Source: Botryllus schlosseri
Taxonomy: Eukaryota
Assembly: GCA_051294905.1 (NCBI GenBank)
Contig: CM119371.1
Location: forward strand, 37,760,001-37,824,000
Length of the DNA stretch: 64,000 bases
Direction: 5' to 3'
Part shown: positions 5,437 through 40,800 of the stretch, one piece after another
Layout: each line of letters opens with the position of its first letter
Numbering within the stretch: position 1 is the first letter of the stretch
Notes under the pieces: generated by a model
The model's database searches: none
What the model saw: only the letters and a program-made list of their open reading frames with translations
Told to the model about the DNA's origin: nothing
Made by a program: the position numbers and the translations under genes

Positions 5437-7534
5437 TTGTCTATTGAAGTGACGTACTTCCAAGAAGCTAAAACTATACTTTATTTATTTTTGCCGGGTT
5501 TGGATCAGATAGGGATTTATCATCATTTTGAAGATGTTTGACTTGGATATTATATTTATAATTATTATCCATTATCGTGCGGCTTATGTAGCGATATCCG
5601 CCACTGCCGGATTTGAACTTCGTCGATTTAGACATCGTATCAAAATAATTACGGACTCGGACTTGAATTTGAATCTAAAATCCGGAACAGGATTTCGATT
5701 CGAAAATGTCAAATCGGCTTGACTCTAAAACATTTTGTCCTTTGTAAATATCTGACTCCCGTAATCGTTAGCAATTCATCTATTTCATATATTCAGAACC
5801 CGTTAGCTGGTTGGACTCGAGTGGATGATTGTTATTACCTCTTGTCTTCGACCACCGCAAGCTGGGACGCGGCCGATAACGAATGCAAATGGGCAATAGA
5901 TGAAGGCAGACTAGCCGTGGTCGGTTTCAGTCAGGCGTTGGATGATATAGAGTGAGATTCTTTTCCTTGCAAATTCCTAGTACCTGATTATTTCTTCCTT
6001 ATGGTAGAGACTATGTTGACGGTACGAATTTTTGCTAATGTCAAAACTAGTAGAAGAATTACCAAAATAATTTTCTACTCAATTAGAAAAGATTTCAAAG
6101 ACATCCCTGAACTACTTCAAAAATATAAGCGCGAATTCTACTAAACTACCTGGAGTTACAGCGATTTTACAAGTATTGCGTGAATCGATTCAGAGATCTG
6201 ATGAACGAGGTTGGCGCTACAGGAACCACTTTTAGATCGGTGCAAAGGGACAGGCTGTTGACACAACAGATGTCGACAGCACCGAATTTATTGCGCCGCT
6301 GGAAGCAACCGACCCGAATTCAGGCGACTCCACATTCGATATCGAGCTATTCGACGGTGCATCCGTTACCAATGATGAGGTAGTTTGCGGTCGGGTTGAC
6401 GCCGAAGATGCAAACAACCTTCTGTTCGAAGAGTGTAACGACAAGGGTCGCCGTTACATGTGCGAAGTTTGCCCTTAAAATAGCAATTGGCATCAAATCG
6501 GATACGATGAATGTCCCTTTGGCTGAAACCGAAGAATTTAAGCCCTGTCGGATAATAGCGGATTTGATGTAATGTTATAGCCCACCCAGATGGGACAATG
6601 CGATTAAATCTTTTTTGTAAAATTGAATGATGCCAGTAGTAATATAAATGTGCGATCGGTGCGCATGCAAGGATTATAATAAACAAACAAGAATTATCAA
6701 TATAAAAGATAGTGAAAGAATTAGCTCATTCTCAATTTTGCAGCAATACTCGAGGGGAATTCCCTTCTCACTGTGCGGCAATCAAGAAGGGGGAATAATT
6801 ACCAATAGAGAGAAAACGAACAAAGAATCTTGATTGACCTTTGTACTCAGACATGAGACTTGAGTACTTCTACTTGTGCTTTTCCACTCGCCTCCTGATT
6901 CTGCCTCGCCTGACCTCTGGACACGAGACTTGCGTATTTAGTATTTTTTATATTTCGCTCGAGCAACAATGGATCGGCCTTTAATTTCAATGGTATGCAC
7001 GCCGACGAATCGGTATAGTTCTCCTGTCTTGACTTGTCGTTCCGCGGTGGGTTGATTAATCCAATTACGTGGTAAACACGACGAGGCTTGGGAATAATTT
7101 CCTCGGGTCCGTATGTGAGATCCCGGACGACGGGGCTTGATAATAGTTGCCTGCCCTGCCCTGTTGTTCCGTGGTCCAATTTCGTTGCTTGGGAACAATA
7201 GTCCGTCAAACCACCCTGGGTGACTTGTCGTTCCGCGGTTGATTCAATTTCGTGCACGGTGGGTCATAATTGCCGGTCGTGACGTCAGTATAGTTTTCTC
7301 CTAATCCGTGAGATCCTGGTGCGTGTTTTAGATGTCAATAGGCTCGGCTATACAAAGTGGCGCTTGTTGTCTGTCTCATACTGTCGTACTTGACCCCATT
7401 AATTTGTTGTCGACCCAGACAGTAACGAGAAATGTTCTGTTATGGTTATAAATATGCGTGTCATATCGAGAACAACAAGGAATGCCGTGTAGTGGAAATG
7501 TGTATTATTAAATAGTATATTCATATTGAAATGA

Positions 7535-7578
7535 ACCCGAATATTTTCGGCTGACACTCGTCAGGGGTAATCGTCAGC
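7535..7578 (-). ncRNA. Minimal hammerhead ribozyme
   Basis: Reverse complement of the motif at 2924-2967. Confidence 0.85.
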
Positions 7579-7893
7579 AACTAGTAGAGAATTGGAAAGA
7601 ACATTGTATATCAACAATCGTATCACAAAATATGACGTCACCAGCATGAAATTTCGAATGAGAGAGCGTTCAATGTCCTGCTTTTGATAAATGCTGGTAA
7701 CGTCTTTTTTGCGATACAAGCCTTCAAAAAGGCTGTTGTTGATACCGCAGTTCTCAATCTTCCCCTAGTCTTTATCAGCTGGTTTAGGATGCGCAACTGA
7801 CTTTCACTGTACCGCTTTCGGAAATATTTGAAGAGCTTCTTGGAGGTACAGAACTTCAATATACAATTAAATAGTATATTCATATTGAAATGA

Positions 7894-7937
7894 ACCCGAA
7901 TATTTTCGGCTGACACTCGTCAGGGGTAATCGTCAGC
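7894..7937 (-). ncRNA. Minimal hammerhead ribozyme
   Basis: Same motif, 359 bp from the previous copy. Confidence 0.85.
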
Positions 7938-8578
7938 AACTAGTAGAGAATTGGAAAGAACATTGTATATCAACAATCGTATCACAAAATATGACGTCAC
8001 CAGCATGAAATTTCGAATGAGAGAGCGTTCAATGTCCTGCTTTTGATAAATGCTGGTAACGTCTTTTTTGCGATACAAGCCTTCAAAAAGGCTGTTGTTG
8101 ATACCGCAGTTCTCAATCTTCCCCTAGTCTTTATCAGCTGGTTTAGGATGCGCAACTGACTTTCACTGTACCGCTTTCGGAAATATTTGAAGAGCTTCTT
8201 GGAGGTACAGAACTTCAATATACAATTAAATAGTATATTCATATTGAAATGAACCCGAATATTTTCGGCTGACACTCGTCTACTATTTAATTGTATATTG
8301 AAGTTCTGTACCTCCAAGAAGCTCTTCAAATATTTCCGAAAGCGGTACAGTGAAAGTCAGTTGCGCATCCTAAACCAGCTGATAAAGACTAGGGGAAGAT
8401 TGAGAACTGCGGTATCAACAACAGCCTTTTTGAAGGCTTGTATCGCAAAAAAGACGTTACCAGCATTTATCAAAAGCAGGACATTGAACGCTCTCTCATT
8501 CGAAATTTCATGCTGGTGACGTCATATTTTGTGATACGATTGTTGATATACAATGTTCTTTCCAATTCTCTACTAGTT

Positions 8579-8622
8579 GCTGACGATTACCCCTGACGAG
8601 TGTCAGCCGAAAATATTCGGGT
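8579..8622 (+). ncRNA. Minimal hammerhead ribozyme
   Basis: Stem I ACCC/GGGT, CTGACGA 8593-8599, GAAA 8609-8612, palindromic stem III, predicted cleavage after C8618. Confidence 0.85.
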
Positions 8623-8632
8623 TCATTTCAAT

Positions 8633-8878
8633 ATGAATATACTATTTAATTGTATATTGAAGTTCTGTACCTCCAAGAAGCTCTTCAAATATTTCCGAAA
8701 GCGGTACAGTGAAAGTCAGTTGCGCATCCTAAACCAGCTGATAAAGACTAGGGGAAGATTGAGAACTGCGGTATCAACAACAGCCTTTTTGAAGGCTTGT
8801 ATCGCAAAAAAGACGTTACCAGCATTTATCAAAAGCAGGACATTGAACGCTCTCTCATTCGAAATTTCATGCTGGTGA
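8633..8878 (+). CDS. 81-aa mini-ORF of the 359-bp unit (Penelope ORF N-terminus fused to the 3' end region)
   Basis: MNILFNCILKFCTS...AFLKACIAKKTLPAFIKSR resembles the FL..C......P.FI N-terminal pattern of Penelope ORFs; expression unknown. Confidence 0.45.
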   Translation: MNILFNCILKFCTSKKLFKYFRKRYSESQLRILNQLIKTRGRLRTAVSTTAFLKACIAKKTLPAFIKSRTLNALSFEISCW

Positions 8879-8937
8879 CGTCATATTTTGTGATACGATT
8901 GTTGATATACAATGTTCTTTCCAATTCTCTACTAGTT

Positions 8938-8981
8938 GCTGACGATTACCCCTGACGAGTGTCAGCCGAAAATATTCGGGT
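8938..8981 (+). ncRNA. Minimal hammerhead ribozyme
   Basis: Same motif, 359 bp downstream of the previous copy. Confidence 0.85.
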
Positions 8982-9331
8982 TCATTTCAATATGAATATA
9001 CTATTTAATTGTATATTGAAGTTCTGTACCTCCAAGAAGCTCTTCAAATGTGTATTAGGCGCCCCAGCATAGATTAACTTAAATAAAGTAACATTATGAG
9101 TAAAAAAATAAGTAATTGAAGAAATAGCTGATTCTCAATTTAGCTCACATCAACGTGTTAACTTCCGATTTTACGTACTTAATAATTGGTGTAATTGCTG
9201 TTCCACACCTTTACCGCGTTCTAGCGTCTTCATATAGGACATAGACAGTCCAGGCCAAACAATGTATTTATGATGGGTTCTTTTTACTGCTTCACGTCTG
9301 GTCAAGCGTAATCATGACGGTGTCTGTACAT

Positions 9332-10234
9332 CAGTGGTCGGGAACCTATGGCTCGCGAGCCATATATGGCTCTTTTGGGTATAAGATATGGCTCTTTGAC
9401 TTATTTTTAATTTTGTACTTAGTTTTATCGATATTGCAGCAACGTGTTAGTAAATTTTCATAACGGCCAGAATAATTATTCTCGTAGCAGTATAAACAAT
9501 AAACATGTATGTAAGAGGTAAAGGCAGTGGCGTATTCAAGGTTAAGGGCTCAGACCCATTTACGAAATCCTCAAATTTAAGTTGCTGTAGCGCCATCGAC
9601 CGATATCCCTCGCGAATACGATGTACCGGACATCGCGAGCTGCGTAATCTTGGATTGCACCATACGTTGGTTGATAAGAGAATAGCAGACATTGGGACGT
9701 CTCTATGACAATCTAATTTTCAAATACACATTGTCTTCCTGATCTACGCTGGAAATGAGCTGCCGTGGAAGTGACATTTTAATTACAAATTCAAATTACA
9801 AACAACGCTGCGCTATCCACTTTTCATTGGTAATTCATCCCAGCTTACTAGTAGCCTACTGCTGTTAAAATGTAGGCATGTAGTGCAACGTTCATGTTAC
9901 CGCCGAATACTTTAAGAATTGATAAGTCGATCAATTCTTGGATTTTCGGAATCAGGGTTATTGTTATATTAAATCAATATCAGTTATTATAAATTCTGAG
10001 CTAGTTACGATGAATTGCGTTATCACAGGATGATTAGTAGCCTACGAGTTTTTACAGAGAACATATGGCGCCCATGACGAATCCCATGTACTGAGTTCGA
10101 ATTAGTGCGACCATGACGTCACCAAGTTCCAATTGTGACGTAACAAGGGATCCACATGTACGGCTCTTTGGGAGTTAAAATGGAAAATATAGGGCCAACT
10201 TGGCTCTTCAGACGAAAAAGGTTCCCGACCACTG
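9332..10234. mobile_element. hAT (Buster-type) MITE in the E1 left arm
   Basis: TIR CAGTGGTCGGGAACCT; perfect TSD ctgtacat. Confidence 0.9.
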
Positions 10235-10302
10235 CTGTACATGATATACAATTTACCGCGATGCTTTACCCGTCTGTACGATATATATCGATCGCGAGCT
10301 CG

Positions 10303-10595
10303 CCACGCACGACGCACTTGTCGTTCGAGAGCGACTCATTTCGCTGCAGACAATCAGCTGTGTACCGTAACGTATCCTCAACACTTGTTATGCCAACACC
10401 TCCACGCATATTTACAATATCATACTAAGGATATATTGCTTCGGCAGCCACGCACTGTCGCTCGAAGTCGACAAATTTCGCTGCAGACAGTCAGTTGTGT
10501 TCGCGTATGTGTCGTAAATATATCCTCAACACGTGTTATGCCAATACCTCCAAGCATATTTGCGGCATCATACTGCGGATATATTGATTCGGCGA
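10303..10595. repeat. Diverged tandem duplication (~145-bp unit x2); mirror at ~19307-19599
   Basis: atttcgctgcagaca...tatcctcaacac.tgttatgccaa.acctcca.gcatattt occurs twice. Confidence 0.7.
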
Positions 10596-11259
10596 AGTGT
10601 TACCGTCAGAGAATTGCTGTGTCACACCTTTGAGTCTCGCATTTCCCGTTCGAACTCGGTAACTGCGAGTGCGATGTCAGATTCAATTGTACAGTGACGA
10701 ATCGGGGTAGCTCGCTTCATCGGGGATCAGTGGACTGACCTTATTTGGCTGAAACGCGCTCGGTGGTGCAATAATGGGAATGAATTGTGACGGATCATAC
10801 GTGATGCGATCTATAGCCTGCTTTCGGTGAGGTTTAAAGATGAGTGGGAGATTTCGAAATCGGAATCCACTGCGACTATAGGGTTGTAAAATCAAAGTCC
10901 AAAAAATCCGGCTGGCACGTAACGTCCTGGTATTTCCATGTATTAGGCTGGTAAAATGTAGCATAAATCCGACTCTCAAAGACACTTGGTCGCATCCAGT
11001 CCGGGTTTAACCAAAACTGATGAAATCTGCGCCGGGTCCGGAAACGAATCGTGACCACCCCCGTCCAGAGAAAACAGTTCTGCTGTAATGGGAGTGTCGT
11101 TGTACATTAATTTGCGTACAGCGAGACTTTGTATCGACTCATTGGCGGACTTCTGTTTGTCTGTACAGGTGTTATTAGTGTAATTATATTTGCCACCACA
11201 AGGGGCATATTGGCAAAATCACACAACGATAACAACTTTACCCGACAACAACTCTCATG

Positions 11260-11620
11260 ACTTGTCGTTGGTACGCTTCCAATTTCGATGTGGTGCGATA
11301 TACGCGAATCAGCTGTGATCAATCGAGCGTGACACAATCGATGTCAGTCATCAATCCGCCTGTTTGGAAAAACTCGCGTTTTCGGGTTGACAGCAACACA
11401 ATGCGATGTATTTGATGTCACCATCGACCCTCCTATTTTAATAGGGTTACCATACGGCCTCATTTAGGGGAGGATATGTCCTCCTTTTCCAAGATATACC
11501 CTCCCTTCGACCAAATGTACCTTGTCAATTTGCTCCCTTGTTAGCTCAAAATCTCCAAAAAACACCGCGAATTACGCAAAATGCGGCCCTAGTTTACGAA
11601 AATCGGGTAGGTAGGTAGTC
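11260..11620. repeat. Diverged direct repeat within the E1 arm (second copy ~13230-13530)
   Basis: aatcagctgtgatca.tcgag.gtgac.c.atcga.gtcagtc...aaaactcg...GGGTT.CC.TACG shared by both copies. Confidence 0.65.
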
Positions 11621-14600
11621 GAGTCGAAAAATGACCCTATGATGGCATTGCGCGGGCCATTACGTGGATACGGGTCTGTGTAAACATGTATTGGTGAATA
11701 GTTAAAGCGACCCAAGCTACCATCCCATGATGAAATCGAGCGCACTCGACCATGTCGGGGTCTACCCACCTTAGTACAGCCAAATGACCCGATGTCGTGC
11801 CGAGAATATACGGGGGAGATGGTACATCATTCTCACAAGATGTACTTTGGAACGTGTGTGAAATCGGCATCGTCCGTTACTCGACTGAAGCAAGTCGCCA
11901 CTTCAATCCCTCTCTGTGTATACACAACGTACTAGGTACTGCAGATCCAGACGAGACTACGCATTCTGGCGAGGTTATCGAGATAGCTGGAGCGCTTTAC
12001 AACACATGCTAAATTTACTTCAAATGGAAGCACAAAATATAGCTTTGAAGTACTCAAGTAGAAGTAGTTTTAAAGAAATGTCGGTATCGTGAAATCCCTT
12101 TCTATCCTAATTATAAAGAGTAGGTCCCCATAAAAACTGTCGAGCCAAAATGCAGTTTCGAAGCAATCCAGTAATTTGTAAATCTTATGGGTTGCACGGT
12201 GTGTTAATTGATTAGAGAGAAGCAGACACGGCGGTGCCTGTATAACAAGGCTGTTCTCAAACCAACATTGTCTTCGTTATTATCGGCGAGATATGGCTTT
12301 GCAGTGACATTGCGGTCGTTAAAATAGATTGATTAAATACGATTTATTCCTCGTATATGGGGATCAATGGGCGAATAATGTATCGATTCAGCAATTCGGC
12401 ACGCAAAGTACTTAATTTTCTCGTATCCGGCCCGCCGACTGAAGGAGTTGCCCGGCCCTTGTATAACAAATATGTAAATGGTGCAATAGCGACAGCTAGC
12501 GGTTGTCGATCATCAATAAAAATACACCTAACCAGTAATACAGCTGTCGAGGATAAACTAGGAATATCTGTGTGAGTCGCCTTGATTGACCCATAGGGCA
12601 AGTTTAGACACGAAAGTATTTTGAGGTGTGATATAACCCTAGTAATTGTACTGTATTTTTCCACGCACACATACCACAATCGAAAACGGGGTTCGCCCGT
12701 CTCATTCCCAGCGTTTGCCTCGAACAAAAGTATCGGAGTGACCATGGATCTACACAAGTCTGCCCCACCGCTTTTGAGTAGATATTTGGAAAGACCGGCT
12801 CGTGATCACCTCCATACAAGGCATATTATTTCTGCGTGCAGCGAAACTTTGCAGCGACCTGCGGGCTGTGCATGTGTTGTTAGTGCAATCGTGTTTAGCA
12901 CAACAAAGAACGTAGCCATTTGAGGATGAATAAAATCTTATCCCACAACGATATCAACTTTACACCCTTCTGCGACTCCAACGGTATGTATTTATGTGAA
13001 TTTCATATTACTATGAAAAGCTGATCGACCACAAGATACCGTTACGTGCCATCTTTTTTGATAGAGTTGTTAGTATTGTAACAGGATGATCGGGGAGCTA
13101 TGGCCATTTACACTAGCTCTAAAAGAGTAGGGGAATTCGTTAGTGATACACCCGTCCGACGCTGGGGTATTCGATAAAATCACTCTGTTTTACAACGGAA
13201 CCGATGATCACACTGACGGGCTCTCATCGCTTGTCGTACGAGTGCTTGTAATTTCGGTGTGATGTGCGCAAATCAGCTGTGATCACTCGAGTGTGACTCT
13301 ATCGAAGTCAGTCCTATCAGCTGCTTGAGAAAACTCGTATATTCAGTCAGGTTGACGGCAATGCGATATTTTTGATGCCCCCATTGATACTAATGGGGGT
13401 TGCCGTACGTCCTACCTCTCTAGGAAAATATCCTCCGTACAAATGTTGTGCTAATTTATCCTCCGGTTCAGCTTAAAATACCCAAAAGACGATGAGTAAC
13501 GCGAAATGAGGACCTACGAGAGACGGGTAGGGTCTATCTTGCTGTTTCGCATAATCCTGTTATTCAACCGTAGGATTCTGGTGTAGGTCTGATTGATAAC
13601 TTTATACAAGTGAAGTAAACTCATTACAAAACTACTTTCTGCTTTTTAAAGTCAAACGTGTAAAGAGGTAATTTCACCTGAAACGGTTGAGGAGTAAGTT
13701 AAAACGACTTGAGTATATAGCACAAGTACCGAGTACTCGAATCAGTAGCGTGACACGATTACTCACCCAAGTCCACAACACACAAACCGAGGAAATAATA
13801 TACAGATATGGAAATAACCCACGATATTTTCCGCTGACACGTTTCAGATTCAGTACAACCCGACAGATACAAATTCAAAGCATCTTCAGTTTGAACGTGG
13901 ACAAAGCATTTACTTATTCTCGAATCAGATAGATGGTTACACTATAGAGAGTCTATACGAATAAGCCTGCATGTCTCTGAATGACTACCTCAGATCTAAA
14001 AAATAGCTCGATCATTTCTCAATGTATTAAAACACTTGGTGATTCGTGATCCACCATACCCGGAGAAGGGAGCACTATGTTTTATATAGATTACAGACAT
14101 ATAGGAAAAAATCATGCTTTATCTAGATTACACCCGTAGCAGGAAAAATTATGCTCTGTCAGCGCCTACATTAGCGGGATTCAGGGTGTCTGGAACGTTT
14201 TTGCAGGTCCCCCATCGCGACGATCCTTTGTCGAGTTGAGATTCCCAAGTCATTCAGCGTGTTGTTCACTAATCATATCCACATATACCCCAAACTATTT
14301 GTTTCACTCGTTCGTTTATGGCCCCCAATTAGCAGACAAAATGGACCGTCCACAGCGGTAGACCGTTAAATTACGATGCAGAGCAGTGAAATGCTATGCG
14401 ATGAGTTCACCCGCAGTGCAAAGAGGCTTTCGGTATACCCTTCCGACGACTTATTTTAGCACCGGGTGATTTTAATACCTTTCTGAAGATGTCGTGTTTT
14501 ATTTGACGAAGTCAGAGGTTTGTTTCACACAGTGGTGATTACGAGCGATAAATTGCAAACATGTTTGCACACAGCAGCTGACGGGTCGCGGTACGGGACA

Positions 14601-17600
14601 ATAAAGACGGTTACCGTGCGAGACGCACAAGCCACCATAGCTACACAGAGTTTATCAGCAACGCCGCTACTTTTTATCCGGGTACTCGAGTCGATTCTGT
14701 CTACTCGCACTGCACCAAGTTATCCATGTGGCTAGCCTTCTTTAGGAAGCCACTTACTTTTAATAGTTTATAAAAGTTTAGCGACCCCCTCCGTATCATG
14801 CGACGATAGCAGAGCTATTAGGCTCGACCAGAGTTGACCACGATTCGGGCATGCATTTTCATCGGCTCGATGTGGAACTGTCTTTAAGGTTTTACCCCCA
14901 CAATACGCGGGAATAACGAGGCTTTACGTACCAACCGTATCGTTTAGAACTTCGAATTGTCGCCCTGAGCTGACATAGCATCCGAGCCATTTTTTTTCAA
15001 CCCCACGCGCGTATAAGTCTGCAAGTAGCAGATTGATGAACCGTGTCCGATCACAGTTGACCCCAGCAAAAACCTGTTTAAACGGTAACTGTGAGGATCA
15101 GTAGACGATGATTCGCCTACACTACAGTAATTCAGTCGTGGTATTTCTATGACTGATATTAATTGCCAATATGTTCTGTTGGGGATGTGGGCATAGCAGG
15201 CGAATTTAGCTTTCCATAACGAGTGTCACCAGAACATATTCAGGCTTATTTCCATGCAGATCCATTCTTGTATCGATTTGTTGAGGAAATAACGATTTCA
15301 AGGATGCAACTCTATCCGATGTACTCGATTAGGATTTGTCCATCTGTGCTATATGAGTCGTTATGTTTCAGACTGCCTCCGCTTCAACAGTTTTAGCTAC
15401 TTACTTTTCGGGTGTTGGGATTTTGAAATGTGTAAAGTAGTTTGTAAATGAATTTACCACACTCTTACGACATTATTAATCAGACACCAAAATCCTGCTC
15501 GTCTCGCTAGACAGTGGGGGTCGATCATACATAAAAACACTTGATAACCAGGCGGTATGTATGTTGGTGAGAGGGATCTAATTGAACAGTGATCTACAAA
15601 GACAACGTCGCCAAACGCGTCGCATAATTTCACAGGATAATGAGAGTTTTACGGGCATGAGTATCCCGCTATTGACCAGTCTGAGGGTGTCGCTAATCTT
15701 TATTGCCTAACCACAGAGCCGTAATATAGACAACGCGGTAACACTGTATATTTCAAGGGTGTGCAAAAGCATATCTGTTCGACAGCAGATCGACGCAAAT
15801 CGCAAAATTACTATACGATCGACACCAACATGGTATACCATTTTACACACAGCGGATTGATTACGCAGGTGGTGACCAGGTTTTGATCGATTTTTAATGA
15901 GGTCGGGTACAGGATAAAGTGGTTTGTGAATTGAATTTGCTTCACTGAAATACACAAAACAATACCACGTTTTTAGGTACCACCCCCGGTTTTTCAAACT
16001 CTTTCAAATTGCAAGCCGCAGCCAGATGGACTTGACTGTCGGGTTGTACTGAATCTGAAACGTGTCAGCGGAAAATATCGTGGGTTATTTCCATATCTGT
16101 ATATTATTTCCTCGGTTTGTGTGTTGTGGACTTGGGTGAGTAATCGTGTCACGCTACTGATTCGAGTACTCGGTACTTGTGCTATATACTCAAGTCGTTT
16201 TAACTTACTCCTCAACCGTTTAAGGTGAAATTACCTCTTTACACGTTTGACTTTAAAAAGCAGAAAGTAGTTTTGTAATGAGTTTACTTCACTTGTATAA
16301 AGTTATCAATCAGACCTACACCAGAATCCTACGGTTGAATAACAGGATTATGCGAAACAGCAAGATAGACCCTACCCGTCTCTCGTAGGTCTTCATTTCG
16401 CGTTACTCATCGTCTTTTGGGTATTTTAAGCTGAACCGGAGGATAAATTAGCACAACATTTGTACGGAGGATATTTTCCTAGAGAGGTAGGACGTACGGC
16501 AACCCCCATTAGTATCAATGGGGGCATCAAAAATATCGCATTGCCGTCAACCTGACTGAATATACGAGTTTTCTCAGGCAGCTGATAGGACTGACTTCGA
16601 TAGAGTCACACTCGAGTGATCACAGCTGATTTGCGCACATCACACCGAAATTACAAGCACTCGTACGACAAGCGATGAGAGCCCGTCAGTGTGATCATCG
16701 GTTCCGTTGTAAAACAGAGTGATTTTATCGAATACCCCAGCGTCGGACGGGTGTATCACTAACGAATTCCCCTACTCTTTTAGAGCTAGTGTAAATGGCC
16801 ATAGCTCCCCGATCATCCTGTTACAATACTAACAACTCTATCAAAAAAGATGGCACGTAACGGTATCTTGTGGTCGATCAGCTTTTCATAGTAATATGAA
16901 ATTCACATAAATACATACCGTTGGAGTCGCAGAAGGGTGTAAAGTTGATATCGTTGTGGGATAAGATTTTATTCATCCTCAAATGGCTACGTTCTTTGTT
17001 GTGCTAAACACGATTGCACTAACAACACATGCACAGCCCGCAGGTCGCTGCAAAGTTTCGCTGCACGCAGAAATAATATGCCTTGTATGGAGGTGATCAC
17101 GAGCCGGTCTTTCCAAATATCTACTCAAAAGCGGTGGGGCAGACTTGTGTAGATCCATGGTCACTCCGATACTTTTGTTCGAGGCAAACGCTGGGAATGA
17201 GACGGGCGAACCCCGTTTTCGATTGTGGTATGTGTGCGTGGAAAAATACAGTACAATTACTAGGGTTATATCACACCTCAAAATACTTTCGTGTCTAAAC
17301 TTGCCCTATGGGTCAATCAAGGCGACTCACACAGATATTCCTAGTTTATCCTCGACAGCTGTATTACTGGTTAGGTGTATTTTTATTGATGATCGACAAC
17401 CGCTAGCTGTCGCTATTGCACCATTTACATATTTGTTATACAAGGGCCGGGCAACTCCTTCAGTCGGCGGGCCGGATACGAGAAAATTAAGTACTTTGCG
17501 TGCCGAATTGCTGAATCGATACATTATTCGCCCATTGATCCCCATATACGAGGAATAAATCGTATTTAATCAATCTATTTTAACGACCGCAATGTCACTG

Positions 17601-28414: not shown

Positions 28415-29076
28415 CGTTTTACGAGAATTAACATTTTTAGATTCAAATAGAGCATATTGAGTACTTTTTCAGCGCATTAGAGACGTTTACACTATGGAGT
28501 TCGTAAGCTTTGCTTGAGTTTTTTAAATTAAGGTAGAAGTAGCCATTTCCGAGTAAGTAAAACGTTAGTATTTTAGGTCCATTTCTGCTTAATGCAATAA
28601 TTATCGCGGTGTTGAAGCAGTCCAATATCATAAACACTTGAAAGAATTTGTTGCATGCAGCTAAAAACCTAATTGAGTACTCGGAAGAAGTACAAGTAGC
28701 ACAGTTTGTGGTGTTTGTATGACATCAAAATTTACGTACTTTTCGCTTACCTTATGTTAATAGTGTTCCTCGTCTATCTACTTTATAAGATTCAGTGTAG
28801 AAATTCAGTAGAAATGTAAACACGCTTGAATATGACTAAAACTCGCATAAGCATTACACTATGATTGATTATTTCAATTAGCAAGCATAATAGATCATCA
28901 CCTAATGAATGCAAGGACGAGTTCGCAAGTGGAAAATAAGTCAGATCGCTCGAAATAATAGTCCCGAGTTGCGTAAAGCTAAAATTTTGCTGGCTTTCAG
29001 AGTTAGTAACTAAGCGCGTAACAGAATTTTCCTAAAAAAGTCAGTACTCCAGAAATTTTGTAAAGTATAGCTTTTT

Positions 29077-29137
29077 GGCGTTGGACTTAAGTTCCAATGA
29101 ACAAGTGTTCACATAGGTTCGAATCCCACACCCACTA
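29077..29137 (+). pseudogene. tRNA-Leu(UAA) 3' two-thirds; mirror 37747-37807 (-)
   Basis: GGCGTTGGACTTAAGTTCCAATGAACAAGTGTTCACATAGGTTCGAATCCCACACCCACTA closely follows the metazoan tRNA-Leu(TAA) pattern. Confidence 0.8.
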
Positions 29138-30459
29138 CGTTTACGAGAATTAATATTTTTAGATTCAAATTTAGCGTATTGAGTACCTTTTCTGCCTTTT
29201 TCAGCGCATTAGAGACGTTTACACTATGGATTTCGTGAGCTTTACTTGAGTTTTATAAATTAACGTAAAAGTAGTCATTTCCGAGTAAGTAAAACGTTCG
29301 TATTGTAGGTTCATTTCTGCTTAATACTATAATTATCGTGGAGTTGGAGCAGTCCAATATCAAAAACACCCGAAAGTATTTGTTGCATATAGCTAAAAAC
29401 CTAATTGAGTACTCTGAAGAAGTGCAAGTAGCACAGTTTGTGGTATTTCTATGACATCGAAATTTAGCTAACCAGAACTTATACTTGAGTACTCCGAAAT
29501 GTACAAGTACTTTACCTTTACACGACGTTTCTGTAAAATGAATACTGATTTTATTAAAAAATAAAAAAGCACGAAAAATTACATTTTATCCCAAACCATC
29601 AGAATACTAAAGTAGCTTATTGCGTATATGGACCTAATACTAAAGTGTGTGACACAGGAGTGATTCATTAAGTATAGCGCAAGCAGGCCAAACCTATAAT
29701 TGAGTGCTCCAAAATGTACAAGTACTTCGCTATGTACTCCCTCCACGTAAAAAGTGACAGATTTAGACAAAAGTTGCTATAGAACTGCGTTAGTTTTAAA
29801 GTTGTTCCATCATGCAATGTGTGATGAAATTTGGTATGCTGCATAATCACAATGCCCTGGAGCTCATTTAGATACGTTTTTTTTAATGTAGTTACACATT
29901 CTAGTTGTTTTGATGTAAGGAAAAAATCATTCGATAACTCGATAGTTAACACGCGTTGATGTAACTTTCCTCATTTGTATGCATAGCCTACGCGAAATTA
30001 TTATTAGCATCTTCGAAACTTTTGGTCTAGTTCATCCGCTTGCATTTCGAAACAGACCATCACGACAAGACTCTAACCCACCACATCCGAGGTTTCAGTT
30101 GATCATATCGAAGAATATCATGTCCATTCGTGTTACCACCCGCAGATTGCGCCACTGCCTCATCAATAATTGTTACGTCATCATCATCACTAGCTTCCGG
30201 CTCTTTACGATACATAACGTGCTGTTCACCGTATCGATAGCACCAACGAATATTCGTGAAAGGGTTGTAATCTCGGTGAAATAGTGTACGACACATTTTT
30301 CCACAATTCGAATGCATGTCGGTTCATACTAAGACCATGTTACGGTCAAATATGTGTGTTTTTCTGTCTCCAAGTCAGCTACCCCCACATTGAATGTACA
30401 GAGTCGGTGTCAAATTTCTACAGCTACGTAAGGGAATTTTTAGGGTTACCCAGAATGAC

Positions 30460-31640
30460 GATTTTTTCAATATATTTGAGAAATGACATAACGCACCTTT
30501 AGGGCTGTGCAATCTGTTCCATCATTATACGCTTGTAAGTCGCCCCGAGCATTCGTGTGTCAACGAGTATGCAGTAATCATTTTCTTCGCTACCTGAAAT
30601 GGAACGATTTAGCTTCAAACTCAACGCATTAGCATAGCGAATCTAAGTATAGACGATAAATAATATACAGTATAGCTCTACCTAATTAATTCATAATATT
30701 GTAACCACAGCGAGATTCGAGTAATGAGCGGGGCTAGATAGTCTACCCTAAACAGAGAACTTGCATATACATTCGAATTTATGCGACTTCGGCTATATTG
30801 CCGGTTAACATTATAGCCGCGCACAGGACTGATTATTACGTTATAGCTATTTAAATGGTACGATATAGGAGAAATCTCGGTACGCTGGCGATTTTTTCAT
30901 AATAGTTGAGAAATGATATAACGCACCTTTAGGGCTGTGCAATTTGCTCCATCATCATACGCTTGTAACTCGCCCCGGGCTTGAATGTGTCCGCGAATAT
31001 ATGCCGTGATCATTTTCTTCGCTACATGAAATGAGACGATGTAGCTTCAAACTCAACGCATTAGCATGCTAAATTTAAAAAAAATAGGTCGTAAATAATA
31101 TAGCGAAGCTCTACTTAATTAAATCTTAATATTGTAATAGCACAAATTATGACGTAGCGTGATCTAGGTATTACTATAGATGTAATATATGATTATTCAG
31201 CATTCGAAATGATAAAGCTTCAGCCATGAAGCTCTGGTGATTTTTTCAATATAATTGAGAAATGATATAACGCACCCTTAGGACTGTGCCATCTGCTCCA
31301 TCATTATACGCTTGTAAGTCGTCCTGGGCTTGCGTGTGTCAACGAGTAGGCAGTAATCATTTTCTTCGCTACCTGAAATGGAGCGATTTAGCTTCAAACT
31401 CAACGCATTAGCATACCGAATTTAAATATAGACGATAAGTAATATACAGTATAGCTCCACTCAATTAATTCACAATATTGTAACCACCGCGAGATTCGAG
31501 TAATAAGCGAGGCTAGAGAGTCTACCCTTAACGGAGAACTTGCATATACATTCGAATTTATGCGACTTCGGCAATATTGCCGGTTAATATTATATCTGCG
31601 CACAGAACTAATTATTACGTTATTAGCTATTGGAGAAATC
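30460..31640. repeat. Three diverged tandem units (~350-430 bp) in the E2 arm (mirror ~35244-36424)
   Basis: ttgagaaatga.ataacgcacc.ttagg.ctgtgc at ~30476, ~30906, ~31255. Confidence 0.8.
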
Positions 31641-32199
31641 TCAACGTAATTCAATCTGCGTGCACAATCCACGTAAGCTAATACCGCATCGAGAAATTAT
31701 AGCTAAATTTAGTTTAAATCGATACAAAAATACATGGATCCTACCTTACCTGTGATGCCTGCCTCGTTCGCTGTGCACATGACAATACTTGGAACAGAAA
31801 TGTGAAGTTTTCAGAATGCGAATTACTTTACGTCGGAAGTAAACATTCTAATTCGTATCGCCAACGCAACTTTATTCATAATGTTCTAATTCGCATTATC
31901 GATGTGGCCCGACTTCTTGGAATCGTAATCAACTATATTCGTGGCACATTTACACGCGTCAATTTCTTGGAATAGTATTCGGCAACATGCGCGGCCCCAG
32001 CAATAATCGCGCAGACCCTAATGTTTTTGAGCTGCATAGCAATGAAATCTTTTGACTGCAAGCGCGAGTTCACAACTGACAAATATGTTAGATCGCACGA
32101 AATAATAGTCCCGAGTTGCGTAAAGTTAATGTTCTCCGCGTAGCTGAGATCGAGGTTTTTCAAGATTTCATCATCACACATCTAATGATGGAACACCTT

Positions 32200-32760
32200 T
32201 GAAACTATCGCAGTCGAATACCGACTTTTACGCATATCTGCTTTTCGTGAACACAGCATATACCCATACATAGTCAATTTTAATAACAGAATTAGTGTGC
32301 GAAACATCAAATTCTCACCTTGAACGTTGGTACGCAGTTGTAGGACATAATAAGAATGAACCATACCAAATTTCGTCACACATTTCATGATGTAACACCT
32401 TTAAAACCAACGCAGTTCTATACAGACTTTTGGCTAAGTCTGTTTTCCGTAGCGTAGCACGTACCTATGCATAGTCAACTTTAATAACGGAATTACCATG
32501 TTAATAATCGACTCCCGACCTTGAAACTCGCTACACCGTTGTAATACATTATGACAATGCACCATGTCAAATTTTGTTACGCATTTCATGATTGAACAAC
32601 TTTAAAACTAATCCAGTTCCATGCCGACTTTTGCGGGGGCGTAGCACGTACCTATGCATACTCAACTTTAATAACGGAATTACCGGGCTTAACATTGAAT
32701 GCGCAACTTGAAGATCGGTTCACAGGTGTAGGACATTATGACAATGGAACATACCACTGC
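32200..32760. repeat. About three diverged ~185-200-bp units in the E2 arm (mirror ~34124-34684)
   Basis: cata.tcaa.tttaataac.gaatta at ~32269, ~32470, ~32657. Confidence 0.7.
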
Positions 32761-33421
32761 GCTAACTTTCAGAATTGTTAAGTATAGTACTCGCACTTTG
32801 TGAGAATACCCAAGTAGGGTTTTTGCCTACATGCACCAAATACTCTCAAGTCCTTATGATATTGGAGTACATCAACTTCATGATAGCTAGAGTATTGAAC
32901 AGAAATGGACCTAGAGTACTAACGTTTTACTTACTCGGAAATGACTACTTCTACCTTATTTTAAAGGATACCTCGTTCGAAGCGAAATTTATGTGGTTTT
33001 GGATAATATCCAAGATATAGGCTCACTTTGAAGGGTACTTCCTAAAACTCAAATATTGCGCAAAAAGTACAATTAGGGATCTAAAAGTAACTAATATAGA
33101 TGGTTATTTCCGTAGATGACTTACCCTCTACTCAAGAGGTTTTTCAGGTGGAACTACCTACTTTTAGGACTGTGTATGTCAAAGTAGTTTGAGCTTACGT
33201 TTATATCACCTTGACAAGTGACATTATCAGACATGAAAATGATATTATCACGTAATACCAGAAGTTAACACACGTCAATGTGTTTCGGAATTCACGAGAA
33301 ATTGCTTACTAAGAGAAGTATATTCTTGTGTACACAATAGCGGAGAGAATATTTAAAATGTAGTAAGCAGGCCGATGGGTATTCATTGAGTTGTATAAGC
33401 ATAAAAAACATTCCTGCGTGC

Positions 33422-33462
33422 GCGTCTCAGGATTAGGTGGTAGGGTTAGGCAGGGTTTAGGA
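33422..33462 (+). other. Unpaired apex loop of E2 with degenerate telomere-like (TTAGG/TAGGG) repeats
   Basis: gcgtctcaggattaggtggtagggttaggcagggtttagga between arms closing on cattcctgcgtgc/gcgcgcgggaatg. Confidence 0.85.
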
Positions 33463-36400
33463 GCGCGCGGGAATGTTTTTTATGCTTATACAACTCAATG
33501 AATACCCATCGGCCTGCTTACTACATTTTAAATATTCTCTCCGCTATTGTGTACACAAGAATATACTTCTCTTAGTAGGCAATTTCTCGTGAATTCCGAA
33601 ACACATTGACGTGTGTTAACTTCTGGTATTACGTGATAATATCATTTTCATGTCTGATAATGTCACTTGTCAAGGTGATATAAACGTAAGCTCAAACTAC
33701 TTTGACATACACAGTCCTAAAAGTAGGTAGTTCCACCTGAAAAACCTCTTGAGTAGAGGGTAAGTCATCTACGGAAATAACCATCTATATTAGTTACTTT
33801 TAGATCCCTAATTGTACTTTTTGCGCAATATTTGAGTTTTAGGAAGTACCCTTCAAAGTGAGCCTACATCTTGGATATTATCCAAAACCACATAAATTTC
33901 GCTTCGAACGAGGTATCCTTTAAAATAAGGTAGAAGTAGTCATTTCCGAGTAAGTAAAACGTTAGTACTCTAGGTCCATTTCTGTTCAATACTCTAGCTA
34001 TCATGAAGTTGATGTACTCCAATATCATAAGGACTTGAGAGTATTTGGTGCATGTAGGCAAAAACCCTACTTGGGTATTCTCACAAAGTGCGAGTACTAT
34101 ACTTAACAATTCTGAAAGTTAGCGCAGTGGTATGTTCCATTGTCATAATGTCCTACACCTGTGAACCGATCTTCAAGTTGCGCATTCAATGTTAAGCTCG
34201 GTAATTCCGTTATTAAAGTTGAGTATGCATAGGTACGTGCTACGCCCCCGCAAAAGTCGGCATGGAACTGGATTAGTTTTAAAGTTGTTCAATCATGAAA
34301 TGCGTAACAAAATTTGACATGGTGCATTGTCATAATGTATTACAACGGTGTAGCGAGTTTCAAGGTTGGGAGTCGATTATTAACATGGTAATTCCGTTAT
34401 TAAAGTTGACTATGCATAGGTACGTGCTACGCTACGGAAAACAGACTTAGCCAAAAGTCTGTATAGAACTGCGTTGGTTTTAAAGGTGTTACATCATGAA
34501 ATGTGTGACGAAATTTGGTATGGTTCATTCTTATTATGTCCTACAACTGCGTACCAACGTTCAAGGTGAGAATTTGATGTTTCGCACACTAATTCTGTTA
34601 TTAAAATTGACTATGTATGGGTATATGCTGTGTTCACGAAAAGCAGATATGCGTAAAAGTCGGTATTCGACTGCGATAGTTTCAAAGGTGTTCCATCATT
34701 AGATGTGTGATGATGAAATCTTGAAAAACCTCGATCTCAGCTACGCGGAGAACATTAACTTTACGCAACTCGGGACTATTATTTCGTGCGATCTAACATA
34801 TTTGTCAGTTGTGAACTCGCGCTTGCAGTCAAAAGATTTCATTGCTATGCAGCTCAAAAACATTAGGGTCTGCGCGATTATTGCTGGGGCCGCGCATGTT
34901 GCCGAATACTATTCCAAGAAATTGACGCGTGTAAATGTGCCACGAATATAGTTGATTACGATTCCAAGAAGTCGGGCCACATCGATAATGCGAATTAGAA
35001 CATTATAAATAAAGTTGCGTTGGCGATACGAATTAGAATGTTTACTTCCGACGTAAAGTAATTCGCATTCTGAAAACTTCACATTTCTGTTCCAAGTATT
35101 GTCATGTGCACAGCGAACGAGGCAGGCATCACAGGTAAGGTAGGATCCATGTATTTTTGTATCGATTTAAACTAAATTTAGCTATAATTTCTCGATGCGG
35201 TATTAGCTTACGTGGATTGTGCACGCAGATTGAATTACGTTGAGATTTCTCCAATAGCTAATAACGTAATAATTAGTTCTGTGCGCAGATATAATATTAA
35301 CCGGCAATATTGCCGAAGTCGCATAAATTCGAATGTATATGCAAGTTCTCCGTTAAGGGTAGACTCTCTAGCCTCGCTTATTACTCGAATCTCGCGGTGG
35401 TTACAATATTGTGAATTAATTGAGTGGAGCTATACTGTATATTACTTATCGTCTATATTTAAATTCGGTATGCTAATGCGTTGAGTTTGAAGCTAAATCG
35501 CTCCATTTCAGGTAGCGAAGAAAATGATTACTGCCTACTCGTTGACACACGCAAGCCCAGGACGACTTACAAGCGTATAATGATGGAGCAGATGGCACAG
35601 TCCTAAGGGTGCGTTATATCATTTCTCAATTATATTGAAAAAATCACCAGAGCTTCATGGCTGAAGCTTTATCATTTCGAATGCTGAATAATCATATATT
35701 ACATCTATAGTAATACCTAGATCACGCTACGTCATAATTTGTGCTATTACAATATTAAGATTTAATTAAGTAGAGCTTCGCTATATTATTTACGACCTAT
35801 TTTTTTTAAATTTAGCATGCTAATGCGTTGAGTTTGAAGCTACATCGTCTCATTTCATGTAGCGAAGAAAATGATCACGGCATATATTCGCGGACACATT
35901 CAAGCCCGGGGCGAGTTACAAGCGTATGATGATGGAGCAAATTGCACAGCCCTAAAGGTGCGTTATATCATTTCTCAACTATTATGAAAAAATCGCCAGC
36001 GTACCGAGATTTCTCCTATATCGTACCATTTAAATAGCTATAACGTAATAATCAGTCCTGTGCGCGGCTATAATGTTAACCGGCAATATAGCCGAAGTCG
36101 CATAAATTCGAATGTATATGCAAGTTCTCTGTTTAGGGTAGACTATCTAGCCCCGCTCATTACTCGAATCTCGCTGTGGTTACAATATTATGAATTAATT
36201 AGGTAGAGCTATACTGTATATTATTTATCGTCTATACTTAGATTCGCTATGCTAATGCGTTGAGTTTGAAGCTAAATCGTTCCATTTCAGGTAGCGAAGA
36301 AAATGATTACTGCATACTCGTTGACACACGAATGCTCGGGGCGACTTACAAGCGTATAATGATGGAACAGATTGCACAGCCCTAAAGGTGCGTTATGTCA

Positions 36401-39400
36401 TTTCTCAAATATATTGAAAAAATCGTCATTCTGGGTAACCCTAAAAATTCCCTTACGTAGCTGTAGAAATTTGACACCGACTCTGTACATTCAATGTGGG
36501 GGTAGCTGACTTGGAGACAGAAAAACACACATATTTGACCGTAACATGGTCTTAGTATGAACCGACATGCATTCGAATTGTGGAAAAATGTGTCGCACAC
36601 TATTTCACCGAGATTACAACCCTTTCACGAATATTCGTTGGTGCTATCGATACGGTGAACAGCACGTTATGTATAGTAAAGAGCCGGAAGCTAGTGATGA
36701 TGATGACGTAACAATTATTGATGAGGCAGTGGCGCAATCTGCGGGTGGTAACACGAATGGACATGATATTCTTCGATATGATCAACTGAAACCTCGGATG
36801 TGGTGGGTTAGAGTCTTGTCGTGATGGTCTGTTTCGAAATGCAAGCGGATGAACTAGACCAAAAGTTTCGAAGATGCTAATAATAATTTCGCGTAGGCTA
36901 TGCATACAAATGAGGAAAGTTACATCAACGCGTGTTAACTATCGAGTTATCGAATGATTTTTTCCTTACATCAAAACAACTAGAATGTGTAACTACATTA
37001 AAAAAAACGTATCTAAATGAGCTCCAGGGCATTGTGATTATGCAGCATACCAAATTTCATCACACATTGCATGATGGAACAACTTTAAAACTAACGCAGT
37101 TCTATAGCAACTTTTGTCTAAATCTGTCACTTTTTACGTGGAGGGAGTACATAGCGAAGTACTTGTACATTTTGGAGCACTCAATTATAGGTTTGGCCTG
37201 CTTGCGCTATACTTAATGAATCACTCCTGTGTCACACACTTTAGTATTAGGTCCATATACGCAATAAGCTACTTTAGTATTCTGATGGTTTGGGATAAAA
37301 TGTAATTTTTCGTGCTTTTTTATTTTTTAATAAAATCAGTATTCATTTTACAGAAACGTCGTGTAAAGGTAAAGTACTTGTACATTTCGGAGTACTCAAG
37401 TATAAGTTCTGGTTAGCTAAATTTCGATGTCATAGAAATACCACAAACTGTGCTACTTGCACTTCTTCAGAGTACTCAATTAGGTTTTTAGCTATATGCA
37501 ACAAATACTTTCGGGTGTTTTTGATATTGGACTGCTCCAACTCCATGATAATTATAGTATTAAGCAGAAATGAACCTACAATACGAACGTTTTACTTACT
37601 CGGAAATGACTACTTTTACGTTAATTTATAAAACTCAAGTAAAGCTCACGAAATCCATAGTGTAAACGTCTCTAATGCGCTGAAAAAGGCAGAAAAGGTA
37701 CTCAATACGCTAAATTTGAATCTAAAAATATTAATTCTCGTAAACGTAGTGGGTGTGGGATTCGAACCTATGTGAACACTTGTTCATTGGAACTTAAGTC
37801 CAACGCCAAAAAGCTATACTTTACAAAATTTCTGGAGTACTGACTTTTTTAGGAAAATTCTGTTACGCGCTTAGTTACTAACTCTGAAAGCCAGCAAAAT
37901 TTTAGCTTTACGCAACTCGGGACTATTATTTCGAGCGATCTGACTTATTTTCCACTTGCGAACTCGTCCTTGCATTCATTAGGTGATGATCTATTATGCT
38001 TGCTAATTGAAATAATCAATCATAGTGTAATGCTTATGCGAGTTTTAGTCATATTCAAGCGTGTTTACATTTCTACTGAATTTCTACACTGAATCTTATA
38101 AAGTAGATAGACGAGGAACACTATTAACATAAGGTAAGCGAAAAGTACGTAAATTTTGATGTCATACAAACACCACAAACTGTGCTACTTGTACTTCTTC
38201 CGAGTACTCAATTAGGTTTTTAGCTGCATGCAACAAATTCTTTCAAGTGTTTATGATATTGGACTGCTTCAACACCACGATAATTATTGCATTAAGCAGA
38301 AATGGACCTAAAATACTAACGTTTTACTTACTCGGAAATGGCTACTTCTACCTTAATTTAAAAAACTCAAGCAAAGCTTACGAACTCCATAGTGTAAACG
38401 TCTCTAATGCGCTGAAAAAGTACTCAATATGCTCTATTTGAATCTAAAAATGTTAATTCTCGTAAAACGTACTGGGTGTGGGATTCGAACCTACGTGAAC
38501 ACTTGTTCATTGGAACTTAAGTCCATCACCAAAAAGCTCTAATTTACAAAATTTTCGGAGTACCGACTTTTTTAGGTGAATTCTGTTATGCGCTTTGTTA
38601 CCAAGTCTGAAAGCAAGCAAAATTTGTGGTATTTGATCAACATGGAAATATTGGAACTTTGCGTTTAGGTGATATTGGAAACATGAGTTACTTAAGAAAA
38701 TTTCGACTCATAGGTGTGGGTAATTTAAAATACGTACGTATTAAAATCATTAATGCATCGGTCACAATTCTGCTCCATTCGAACCTACGTGAACACTTGT
38801 TCATTGGAACTTAAGTCCATCACCAAAAAGCTCTAATTTACAAAATTTTCGTAGTACCGACTTATTTAGGTGAAATCTGTTATGCGCTTTGTTACTAAGT
38901 CTGAAAGCAAGCAAAGTTTGTGGTATTTGATCAACATGGAAATTTTGGAGCTTTGCGTTTAGGTGATATTGAAAACATGAGTTACTTAAGAACATCTCGA
39001 CTCATAGGTGTGGGTAATTTAAAATACAGAGTATTAAAATCATTAATGTATCGGTCACAATTCTGCTCCAATACAACTACAAGTAGAGATTTCAAAGTAA
39101 GCTACTGGTTATATTTCTACTATATTCGCTCCGAACATTATAGCAGCACCCGACGCAGCTTACATTATTACGTTATAAGACGCCGGCGGCGTTTCACTGT
39201 CGGTTTAATCATCCTTATTCTAGTGACATGAAAAGGACTGAATCGTATGAAATGTGGTCACTACAAGAATCGAGCGAAAGCGCTGTTTCACGTCGTCTTG
39301 CATCGGTCACGATTAGTTTTACTTTTCAACTAACTTGTTGTCTGTCGTTATATTCATTAGACTCGCTTTCATGCGGCTAATTTGTCCTTATCATTTTAAC

Positions 39401-40800
39401 GTCGGTGATCGCGTACCTGCGGCGATGGTGTTCGTTTAATTATAACAACGAGAAAATCGGGCTTCATAATTGTGCGGGGGGAAACTGCGTTGGTTTTAAA
39501 GTTGTTCAATCATGAAATGCGTAACAAAATTTGACATGTCGGGTTACTTGTGAGTTTTCTCACACATGTTTACTATATTGTGTCACTCTTTATTGGTCAA
39601 TACATATCCCACCGTTCAGTTTGAAATCGGAAACTTAAAATTCAAGTAAAGCTTACGATTAAATTATGTTACGCGCTTAGTTACTAACTCTGAAAGCAAG
39701 CAAAATTCGTGGTATTTGATCGATATGGAAATTCGTGCACTGCATTTAGGTTGTGTTGAAAACATGACTTACTTAACAACGTTTCGACTCATAGGTGTGG
39801 ATAATTTAAAATACAGAGTATTGAAGTCATTAATGCATCGGTCACGATTAGTTTTACTTTTCAACTAACTTGTTGTCTGTCGTTATATTCATTAGACTCG
39901 CTTTCATGCGGCTAATTTGTCCCTATCATTATAACGTTAGGGATCGCGTACCTGCAGCGAAGGTGATTGTTTAATTTTAATATATAACAATAAAACCGCG
40001 AGTGTAAAATGAATTTAAAAAGTTCTACTATACAAAATTTTCGGAGTACCGACTATTTTGGGTAAATTCTGTTATGCGCTCAGTTACTGACTCTGAAAGC
40101 AAGCAAAGTTTGTGGTATTTGATCAACATGGAAATTCGTGCACTTTGCGTTTAGGTCATGTTGAAAACATTAGTTACTTAACAACATTTCAACCAATAGG
40201 TGTGGATAATTTAAAATTCAGAGTAATAAAGTCATTAAGAGATATTACCATCTTTAAATCATGGCCATATCATTGAAGTTGATTAAATTTACGGCTTCAG
40301 AACGCGTTAATTAGTCCCTGTCGTTATAACGCTGGGGTTCGCGTATATGCAGATAAAGTGTTTGTATAATTACAGCCCTGAGAATCGCGCGCCTGCGGCT
40401 ATAGTTCGTTCGATTATTTTCGCCTTGGGTGCTGTAGTGTTCTCGTGAACATAGATAGTCTGAAAGCAATGGGCCTTTGGTAAAGTTATATGGCCGAAAA
40501 CATCTAACGCTCACTAATCCAAATACAAAGTCCTAAATACACATACTAATATTAAATATCCAGAAAAAATACACATAATATAATATTTGGCGAATATAGT
40601 CTTGTATAGACATCATACTTTTCGAAATTTGCTCCTAAATACACACGGTTATAGTCTAACGGTCACGATGAACGTAAATAGCCTCGGGGGCGGACTCGAC
40701 ACGCATGATTGGTGCGTACCAATTTGATCAACCCTCACTACTCTACTCCAAGTCGTTTCGACTCCTTCCTGTCCTTTCATTGTATCGCAGGTGCATTGAA

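Follow-up and report, generated by a model that had tools for sequence, protein, structure and literature searches.

The locus described here raises the question of what kind of genetic element can consist almost entirely of its own inverted repeat, and how such an element came to lie in an animal chromosome. The window that we analyzed, 64,000 nucleotides (nt) of Botryllus schlosseri contig CM119371.1 (from an assembly of 495 Mb in 219 contigs), contains two gene-free palindromic elements, E1 (positions 6635 to 21717; 15,083 bp) and E2 (positions 26142 to 40742; 14,601 bp), spaced 4.4 kb apart. A preliminary description of the window had placed the two elements at these positions and had taken them for separate snap-back accidents, in which one end of a Maverick/Polinton was copied back on itself. 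Based on the results given below, we conclude that E1 and E2 are probably non-autonomous, gene-free derivatives of Mavericks/Polintons, whose terminal inverted repeats (TIRs) have grown into one palindrome, and that they represent two unrelated, many-copy lineages that spread as palindromes.

The limits of both elements were read directly from the sequence. E1 reads GATGCC|AGTAGT...ACTACT|GATGCC, with the perfect 6-bp target-site duplication at positions 6629 to 6634 and 21718 to 21723; the limits reported by the repeat finder, 6634 and 21718, are the true ends plus one chance C:G pair. E2 reads CTACTC|AGTAGT...ACTACT|CTACTC, and its perfect 6-bp duplication occupies positions 26136 to 26141 and 40743 to 40748. 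The arms of E1 are 873 plus 4,821 nt long (~5.7 kb) around a unique center of 2,169 nt (positions 13867 to 16035), and they differ at 2 positions in 874 and at 13 positions in 4,821. The arms of E2 (positions 26142 to 33421 and 33463 to 40742) are 7,280 nt each around a center of only 41 nt, and they differ at 16 positions. There are no insertions or deletions between the arms of either element. The 5.7- and 7.3-kb arm lengths of the preliminary description, as well as its end sequences and duplications, are therefore correct.

Chimeric long reads are known to yield near-perfect palindromes, and among the contigs listed for four public sequencing runs none bridges the two junctions that they were compared with, so an assembly artefact (fold-back chimeric reads or a misjoined repeat) has to be considered. 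The pattern of mismatches argues against this. Of the 31 differences between arms in the two elements, 23 are transitions and 8 are in a CpG context, which, together with the lack of insertions and deletions, resembles the usual accumulation of point mutations in arms that were once identical and is unlike a folded read. In addition, both ends of each element lie in unique flanks with matching 6-bp duplications, and the same architecture is present at dozens of loci on many contigs, with different duplications and with arm identities of 98.3 to 100%. We consider an artefact extremely improbable.

Neither element has recognizable coding content. The whole window contains no open reading frame (ORF) of at least 150 amino acids (aa), and no Pfam family was detected at an E value of ≤0.01 in 38 of the 46 stop-to-stop frames of at least 70 aa from one half of each element (21 of 29 frames from E1, with the 8 shortest left out, and all 17 frames from E2). 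The genes that characterize an autonomous Polinton, which are pPolB, the rve integrase, and the capsid and maturation genes, were found in neither E1 nor E2 by ORF analysis, by the Pfam scan, or by blastn comparison with a coding copy. A blastn comparison of E1 with E2 gives no match, so the statement that the two are unrelated internally stands. The description of the arms as filled with repeats and tRNA sequences holds in part: tandem and dispersed repeats are present within the arms, the tandem ones being only a few two-copy repeats, while the tRNA content does not hold up (no tRNA genes with ARAGORN and no Rfam matches). Two unrelated palindromes may lie so close together in such an ORF-poor window because the region is poor in genes and rich in repeats, or because of an insertion preference.

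The ends of both elements are those of Mavericks. According to the passages of PMC8097293 that deal with vertebrate elements, 5'-(AGT)2//(ACT)2-3' with 6-bp duplications is the commonest Maverick end type, and the terminal repeats are 46 to 1,447 bp long, with a mean of 402 bp. The end motif, the duplication length, and the usual repeat length are also given in the corresponding passages of PMC3014272. In the passages of PMC4196379 that summarize Polintons, the tips are 5'-AG...CT-3', the terminal repeats are 100 to 1,000 bp long, and a model is given in which the terminal repeats close a single-stranded "racket" and protein priming uses a short tandem repeat at the end. The assignment of E1 and E2 to this end type is thus in agreement with these sources, and at 5.7 and 7.3 kb the arms greatly exceed the usual TIR length.

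In order to place E1 and E2 within the genome, we compared their ends with the assembly; in these and the following searches a sample of the candidates was scored, and three whole elements were read. The terminal 500 bp of E1 has 42 matches (40 of 329 candidates scored), and that of E2 has 51 (40 of 497 candidates scored). Many of these matches form inverted pairs 8 to 22 kb apart. For 17 pairs, including E1 and E2, we compared the two fetched ends, each with 1.7 to 2.5 kb of interior. In 13 of the 15 pairs besides E1 and E2, inverted identity of 99.6 to 100% continues through all of the fetched interior; in another, the arms match in three pieces at 98.3 to 99.0%; and in the last, a coding copy on contig 8, the inverted repeat stops at 562 nt. 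Tips and flanks were read in 16 pairs, again including E1 and E2, with the fragmented pair dropped. All 16 start with AGTAG(T/G) and end with ACTA(C/T)T, and so have the Maverick-type tip with its short terminal tandem repeat. Thirteen of them have a perfect 6-bp duplication, 2 have one that matches at 5 of 6 positions, and 1 has one that matches at 4 of 6 positions. The copies with their own loci and duplications that the preliminary description called for therefore exist, and 13 of the 14 tip-read pairs besides E1 and E2 are long-armed palindromes.

Other comparisons gave the same picture. Two E1-type copies that were fetched whole are near-full palindromes with arms 99.1 to 99.8% alike and a longest frame of 135 aa. 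The arm interior of E1 is collinear with other gene-free palindromic copies at 73 to 97% identity and shows no collinearity with the coding copy. The first 24 nt of E2, with up to 3 mismatches allowed, occur 32 times, compared with 0 times for a control; these occurrences make 12 inverted pairs of 3.3 to 22 kb, of which 7 span 13.6 to 17.8 kb. Within a copy the arms are 99.7 to 100% alike, while the difference between copies is 0.6 to 1% for the closest and reaches 20% or more for distant ones.

The center of E2 bears on how these palindromes arose. The 41-nt tip (positions 33422 to 33462, plus strand) is asymmetric, and its predicted DNA fold has a free energy of -55 kcal/mol (z = -15.5). On one strand only, it is rich in the telomere-like words GGTTAGG, GGGTTTAGG, GGATTAGG, and GGTAGGGTTAGG, which might derive from a linear end that was once capped or folded back, or might be there by chance. 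A 241-nt probe across the center (40 places scored of 650 candidates) matches at 93 to 98% identity in one orientation, compared with 84 to 87% in the other, indicating that the asymmetric tip is conserved together with its polarity. With a 2-kb probe ending just past the center (39 of 1,519 candidates scored), both arms adjoin the center at ≥27 loci on many contigs, and at least 5 of these loci are the midpoints of known E2-type end pairs. The same tip with the same adjoining arms at so many loci means that the palindrome is ancestral to the family and was not made anew at each locus. Judging from these loci, the E2 palindrome is inherited and moves as a unit.

This result bears directly on the explanation offered by the preliminary description, that each palindrome was made separately when the polymerase of a helper element switched to copying its own product, which was then integrated. 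A precedent for such an event is known from defective adenovirus genomes, which carry long inverted terminal duplications, and the points at which symmetry breaks do differ among copies: some E2-type copies have one arm shortened at the center, and the center of E1 is arm sequence elsewhere (see below). However, central deletion is a known fate of long palindromes, and later central deletions would explain the differing centers equally well. One-off events also do not account for a shared center, in one orientation and with the same adjoining arms, at ≥27 loci, for arm interiors that are common to gene-free copies, or for helper sequence that is limited to the outer ~470 bp of the arms (described below). 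We therefore regard separate snap-back events as very unlikely for the copies seen today, although a snap-back may have been the original event.

E1 is the less symmetrical of the two elements. Sequence of its center found elsewhere in the genome forms both arms of close inverted pairs, for example on contig 10 at 3116937(-)/3119605(+) and on contig 7 at 20134383(-)/20137245(+), the latter within an E1-type end pair. The E1 center is thus arm sequence in other copies, which indicates that E1 has lost part of its left arm compared with its right arm. This, together with the E2-type copies that are cut on one side, fits later central deletions or occasional refolding. The inner left arm of E1 (positions 9046 to 13866) has its mirror copy at positions 16036 to 20856 and carries the 13 mismatches in 4,821 nt. 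Between it and the outer arm lies a 1.54-kb insertion (positions 7508 to 9045) that is absent from the right arm. The insertion is made up of 2.2 units of 359 bp and then 2.1 units in inverted orientation, and it is bracketed by a 12-nt direct repeat, AAATGTGTATTA, at positions 7496 to 7507 and 9046 to 9057. The 359-bp unit is in part a dispersed short repeat. This repeat, of ~180 nt, builds the units of the insertion (positions 7508 to 9045), abuts the right end of E1 at 80% identity (positions 21717 to 21846), and occurs twice more in the window (positions 2817 to 2994 and 63338 to 63440).

We then asked whether there is a coding Maverick in the genome that shares the ends of these elements. 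The coding copy on contig 8 is 17.7 kb long and has a 562-bp terminal repeat and a string of frames on one strand. Its polymerase is represented by frames of 811 and 564 aa, which are the halves of a split polymerase of ~1,300 aa. The polymerase has four database relatives, two of which carry PF03175 (E values of 9e-15 and 8e-16), and the exonuclease regions and the region of the DTD motif align. The PF03175 profile itself gave no match in the B. schlosseri genome and was also silent in control genomes; the polymerase was found through its relatives. A 163-aa frame matches the rve integrase core with an E value of 3.7e-5 and 24.4 bits, which is below the Pfam cutoff of 32.6. It also matches the integrase cores of foamy viruses weakly, one of its relatives carries PF00665, and the frame that follows it has a weak chromodomain match.

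A penton-like frame of the coding copy encodes 278 aa and belongs to a family of 2,365 relatives at E values of ≤0.001. Its structural model, folded with 59 relatives, has a pLDDT of 83 (single-sequence folding gave a pLDDT of 38). The top PDB match of the model is the mavirus penton (E value of 1e-7), PDB ranks 1 to 39 are all penton or vertex proteins (from adenoviruses, virophages, and a chlorovirus), and the best match among viral models is an adintovirus protein. A profile of the family gave nothing against PDB sequences and Pfam. A 213-aa frame adjoining the end is similar to Peptidase_C5 (adenain-type protease) clusters from this virus phylum, which we treat as a lead only; a homology search found one relative. 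There is a weak P-loop hint in the coding copy, no major capsid protein was identified among its frames, and searches of the frames against PHROGs and PDB sequences gave nothing useful. Based on the polymerase, the integrase fragment, and the penton-like protein, we conclude that the contig 8 copy is a Maverick/polintovirus with a split polymerase. In seven coding copies (L017, L012, L018, L020, L021, L024, and L025), frames of ~257 and 213 aa by the end overlap by ~200 nt (in L017, positions 2 to 772 and 577 to 1215). Because the same overlap recurs in seven copies, decay seems a less likely cause than overlapping genes, a short intron, or a programmed frame change.

The E1 lineage has such coding relatives. 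Its terminal repeat (positions 6635 to 7100, with the mirror copy at positions 21252 to 21717) is common to coding Mavericks: positions 6674 to 7100 are 87% identical to both ends of the contig 8 copy, with no match beyond the terminal repeat, and the outer ~470 bp is 82 to 89% identical to ends found within 15 kb of pPolB genes. Among the polymerase places with at least 88% identity to the query, 15 of 20 have an E1-type end no more than 15 kb away, several of them with open frames of 1,328 to 1,381 aa, and three coding pairs measure 16.6 to 22.6 kb. E1 thus has ends in common with an autonomous element and lacks its genes, as expected for a non-autonomous copy. More generally, the polymerase genes, of which 56 places were scored out of 314 candidates, form at least three clades, with 88 to 92%, 58 to 62%, and 37 to 40% identity to the query, and many have uninterrupted frames of ~1,300 to 1,381 aa. 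The Maverick population of this genome is unusually rich and apparently young.

For E2 the proposal of a helper with shared termini, which is borne out for E1, found no such support. E2 has no sequence in common with the contig 8 coding copy, and no E2-type end is found within 25 kb of any of the 56 polymerase places that were scored (this search covered 56 of 314 polymerase candidates, 40 of 200 to 500 end candidates, and the 24-nt end pattern). These results, and the lack of any sequence shared with E1, would be expected if the E2 lineage belonged to another group of DNA transposons, foldback-type or other DDE elements with 6-bp duplications, that resembles Mavericks at the tips only. We find this quite unlikely. 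The E2 and E1 lineages are alike in their (AGT)2//(ACT)2 tips, 6-bp duplication, size range, and architecture, and the ends of the E1 lineage do match coding Mavericks; E2 has no transposase-like frame; and the polymerase clades of this genome, at least three in number, could supply ends not yet read.

How would the arms of such elements remain so similar? We propose that the integrase of coding Mavericks would insert the palindromes in trans and that the protein-primed polymerase of the helper would copy them, with the (AGT)2 end repeat as a slide-back signal. At the single-stranded racket stage, a full palindrome would become a single hairpin of 5.7 to 7.3 kb, in which one arm could template the repair of the other. 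In adenovirus, one terminal repeat corrects the other through a panhandle. Hairpin repair of this kind would account for arms that are 99.7 to 100% alike while copies diverge, and for symmetric rearrangements. It would also account for the mosaic structure of E2, in which the outer 313 nt resembles one set of copies and the interior another (99.0 to 99.4%), with the identical pattern on both arms. The retention of (AGT)2 tips would follow from the same mechanism. Both elements show integration by an enzyme that cuts with a 6-bp stagger at Maverick tips, both lack genes, and E1 has a helper-type terminal repeat; mobility in trans and the hairpin stage we infer, and a packaged stage is more speculative.

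The other possible source of arm identity is gene conversion in the chromosome, as in large sex-chromosome palindromes, acting on otherwise ordinary non-autonomous elements. Close inverted repeats do convert each other, and the 3 of 16 copies with decayed duplications have arms at least 99.6% alike. In contrast, E1 has a 1.54-kb insertion on one side and an off-centre piece of 2.2 kb beside arms that are 99.7% alike. Furthermore, the arms of a copy differ by 0 to 0.4%, which is no more than the closest copies differ from one another (0.6 to 1%) and fits arms that were identical at insertion. Gene conversion also gives no account of a palindromic master lineage that remains symmetric even though its mosaic changes extend right to the final base of the element. 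We therefore judge it unlikely that gene conversion is the only source of arm identity.

The gene-free palindromes keep a size of ~14 to 19 kb and do not shrink to the size of miniature inverted-repeat transposable elements (MITEs). The fact that two unrelated lineages are both near 15 kb, just under the 16.6 to 22.6 kb of the coding pairs, points to a length requirement such as packaging, and we speculate that the retained length reflects a need to fit the helper capsid. Part of this clustering of lengths is due to recent copies of one master. Taken further, the palindromes could be satellite genomes of an animal polintovirus, gene-free self-complementary hairpins that would be replicated by the helper polymerase, packaged in its capsid, and moved between cells or individuals. 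We offer this only as a tentative extension, and it is on the whole doubtful. If it were true, the palindrome would be an adaptation (two origins, self-repair of the arms, and cheap "stuffer" length) and not an accident, and the abundance of these elements would be indirect evidence of a virion-based cycle in animal Mavericks.

Several observations weigh against our preferred explanation, that E1 and E2 are Maverick derivatives spreading as palindromes. One is the lack of an E2-type end near any scored polymerase. In the coding copy that we examined, the integrase match is below the curated cutoff and the polymerase is split. The three imperfect duplications belong to copies whose arms are 99.6 to 99.96% alike, which hints at homogenization in place or at rearranged flanks; the one-sided insertion and the off-centre piece of E1 mean, for their part, that symmetry was not restored in place. 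The palindromic layout is known from this one assembly, and among the short contigs of four public runs (all under one organism label) over positions 21200 to 26700, which take in the right-hand E1 junction and the left-hand E2 junction, none of those listed bridges either junction. No empty-site joint was seen in these contigs either.

Comparison with known systems places these elements nearest to Mavericks/Polintons and their non-autonomous copies, with which they share the tips, the 6-bp duplication, and a length of 14 to 19 kb, and, in the case of E1, homology of the terminal repeat to copies with pPolB, integrase, and penton genes. They differ from these in being gene-less, in having repeats of 5.7 to 7.3 kb that meet in the middle (compared with 562 bp in the coding copy), in having an interior unrelated to the helper, and in their high copy number and conserved hairpin center. 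Foldback (FB) elements of Drosophila and similar transposons with long inverted repeats also have long inverted, partly repetitive arms that make up the bulk of the element, often lack coding capacity, and show greater similarity between the two arms of one copy than between the arms of different copies. However, the arms of FB elements are arrays of short tandem repeats and their target duplication is 9 bp, whereas the arms of E1 and E2 are mostly complex sequence, with a few two-copy tandem repeats only, a 6-bp duplication, and Maverick tips. Defective adenovirus genomes and panhandle repair provide a parallel in a linear, protein-primed genome with one end duplicated in inverted orientation and with a terminal repeat that repairs the other through an intrastrand duplex. 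Those genomes are transient in infected cells and carry helper sequence, whereas E1 and E2 are chromosomal, heritable, and multicopy, with helper sequence only in the terminal repeat. MITEs are likewise gene free, mobilized in trans through shared ends, and capable of forming hairpins, but they shrink to ~0.1 to 0.8 kb, while the Maverick palindromes stay roughly at the size of the helper genome.

Some further features of the window and of other copies were recorded. An inverted repeat pair at positions 55920 to 56649 and 58596 to 59328 (737 nt at 87% identity, ~2 kb apart) is most likely a further transposon whose terminal repeats are long. Immediately beyond two of the palindromic copies are frames with protease matches, one to Ulp1-type Peptidase_C48 (L016:306-1475, plus strand; E value of 1e-5) and one to an OTU protease, with a weak PHD finger (L041:2284-3000, minus strand; E value of 8e-5), which probably belong to other mobile elements adjoining the insertions. 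Part of the E2 stretch between positions 25600 and 35599 is held by 20 public run entries, including four other organism labels and sea-water metagenomes; the other-organism and marine runs hold 21 to 45% of the sampled 31-letter words. These matches could come from close relatives, from mixed samples, or from transfer between species.

Our literature searches, which did not extend to Repbase entries, found no description of a gene-free, fully palindromic or foldback Polinton/Maverick. Non-autonomous Mavericks with a foldback architecture, a conserved hairpin tip, and large families are apparently an undescribed form. Gene-free passengers are common for cut-and-paste transposons, but to our knowledge they have rarely been described for Mavericks/Polintons, and we know of the copying of Mavericks only from a model. 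A population of passengers that has only the ends and is approximately the size of the helper is a natural experiment on what Maverick replication, integration, and possibly packaging require in cis, and the palindrome families bear on how terminal repeats stay identical. Long near-perfect palindromes are usually unstable. The toleration in an animal-sized genome of dozens of near-perfect palindromes of 10 to 15 kb, with spacers of tens of bases, is thus of interest both for genome stability and for the quality control of assemblies.

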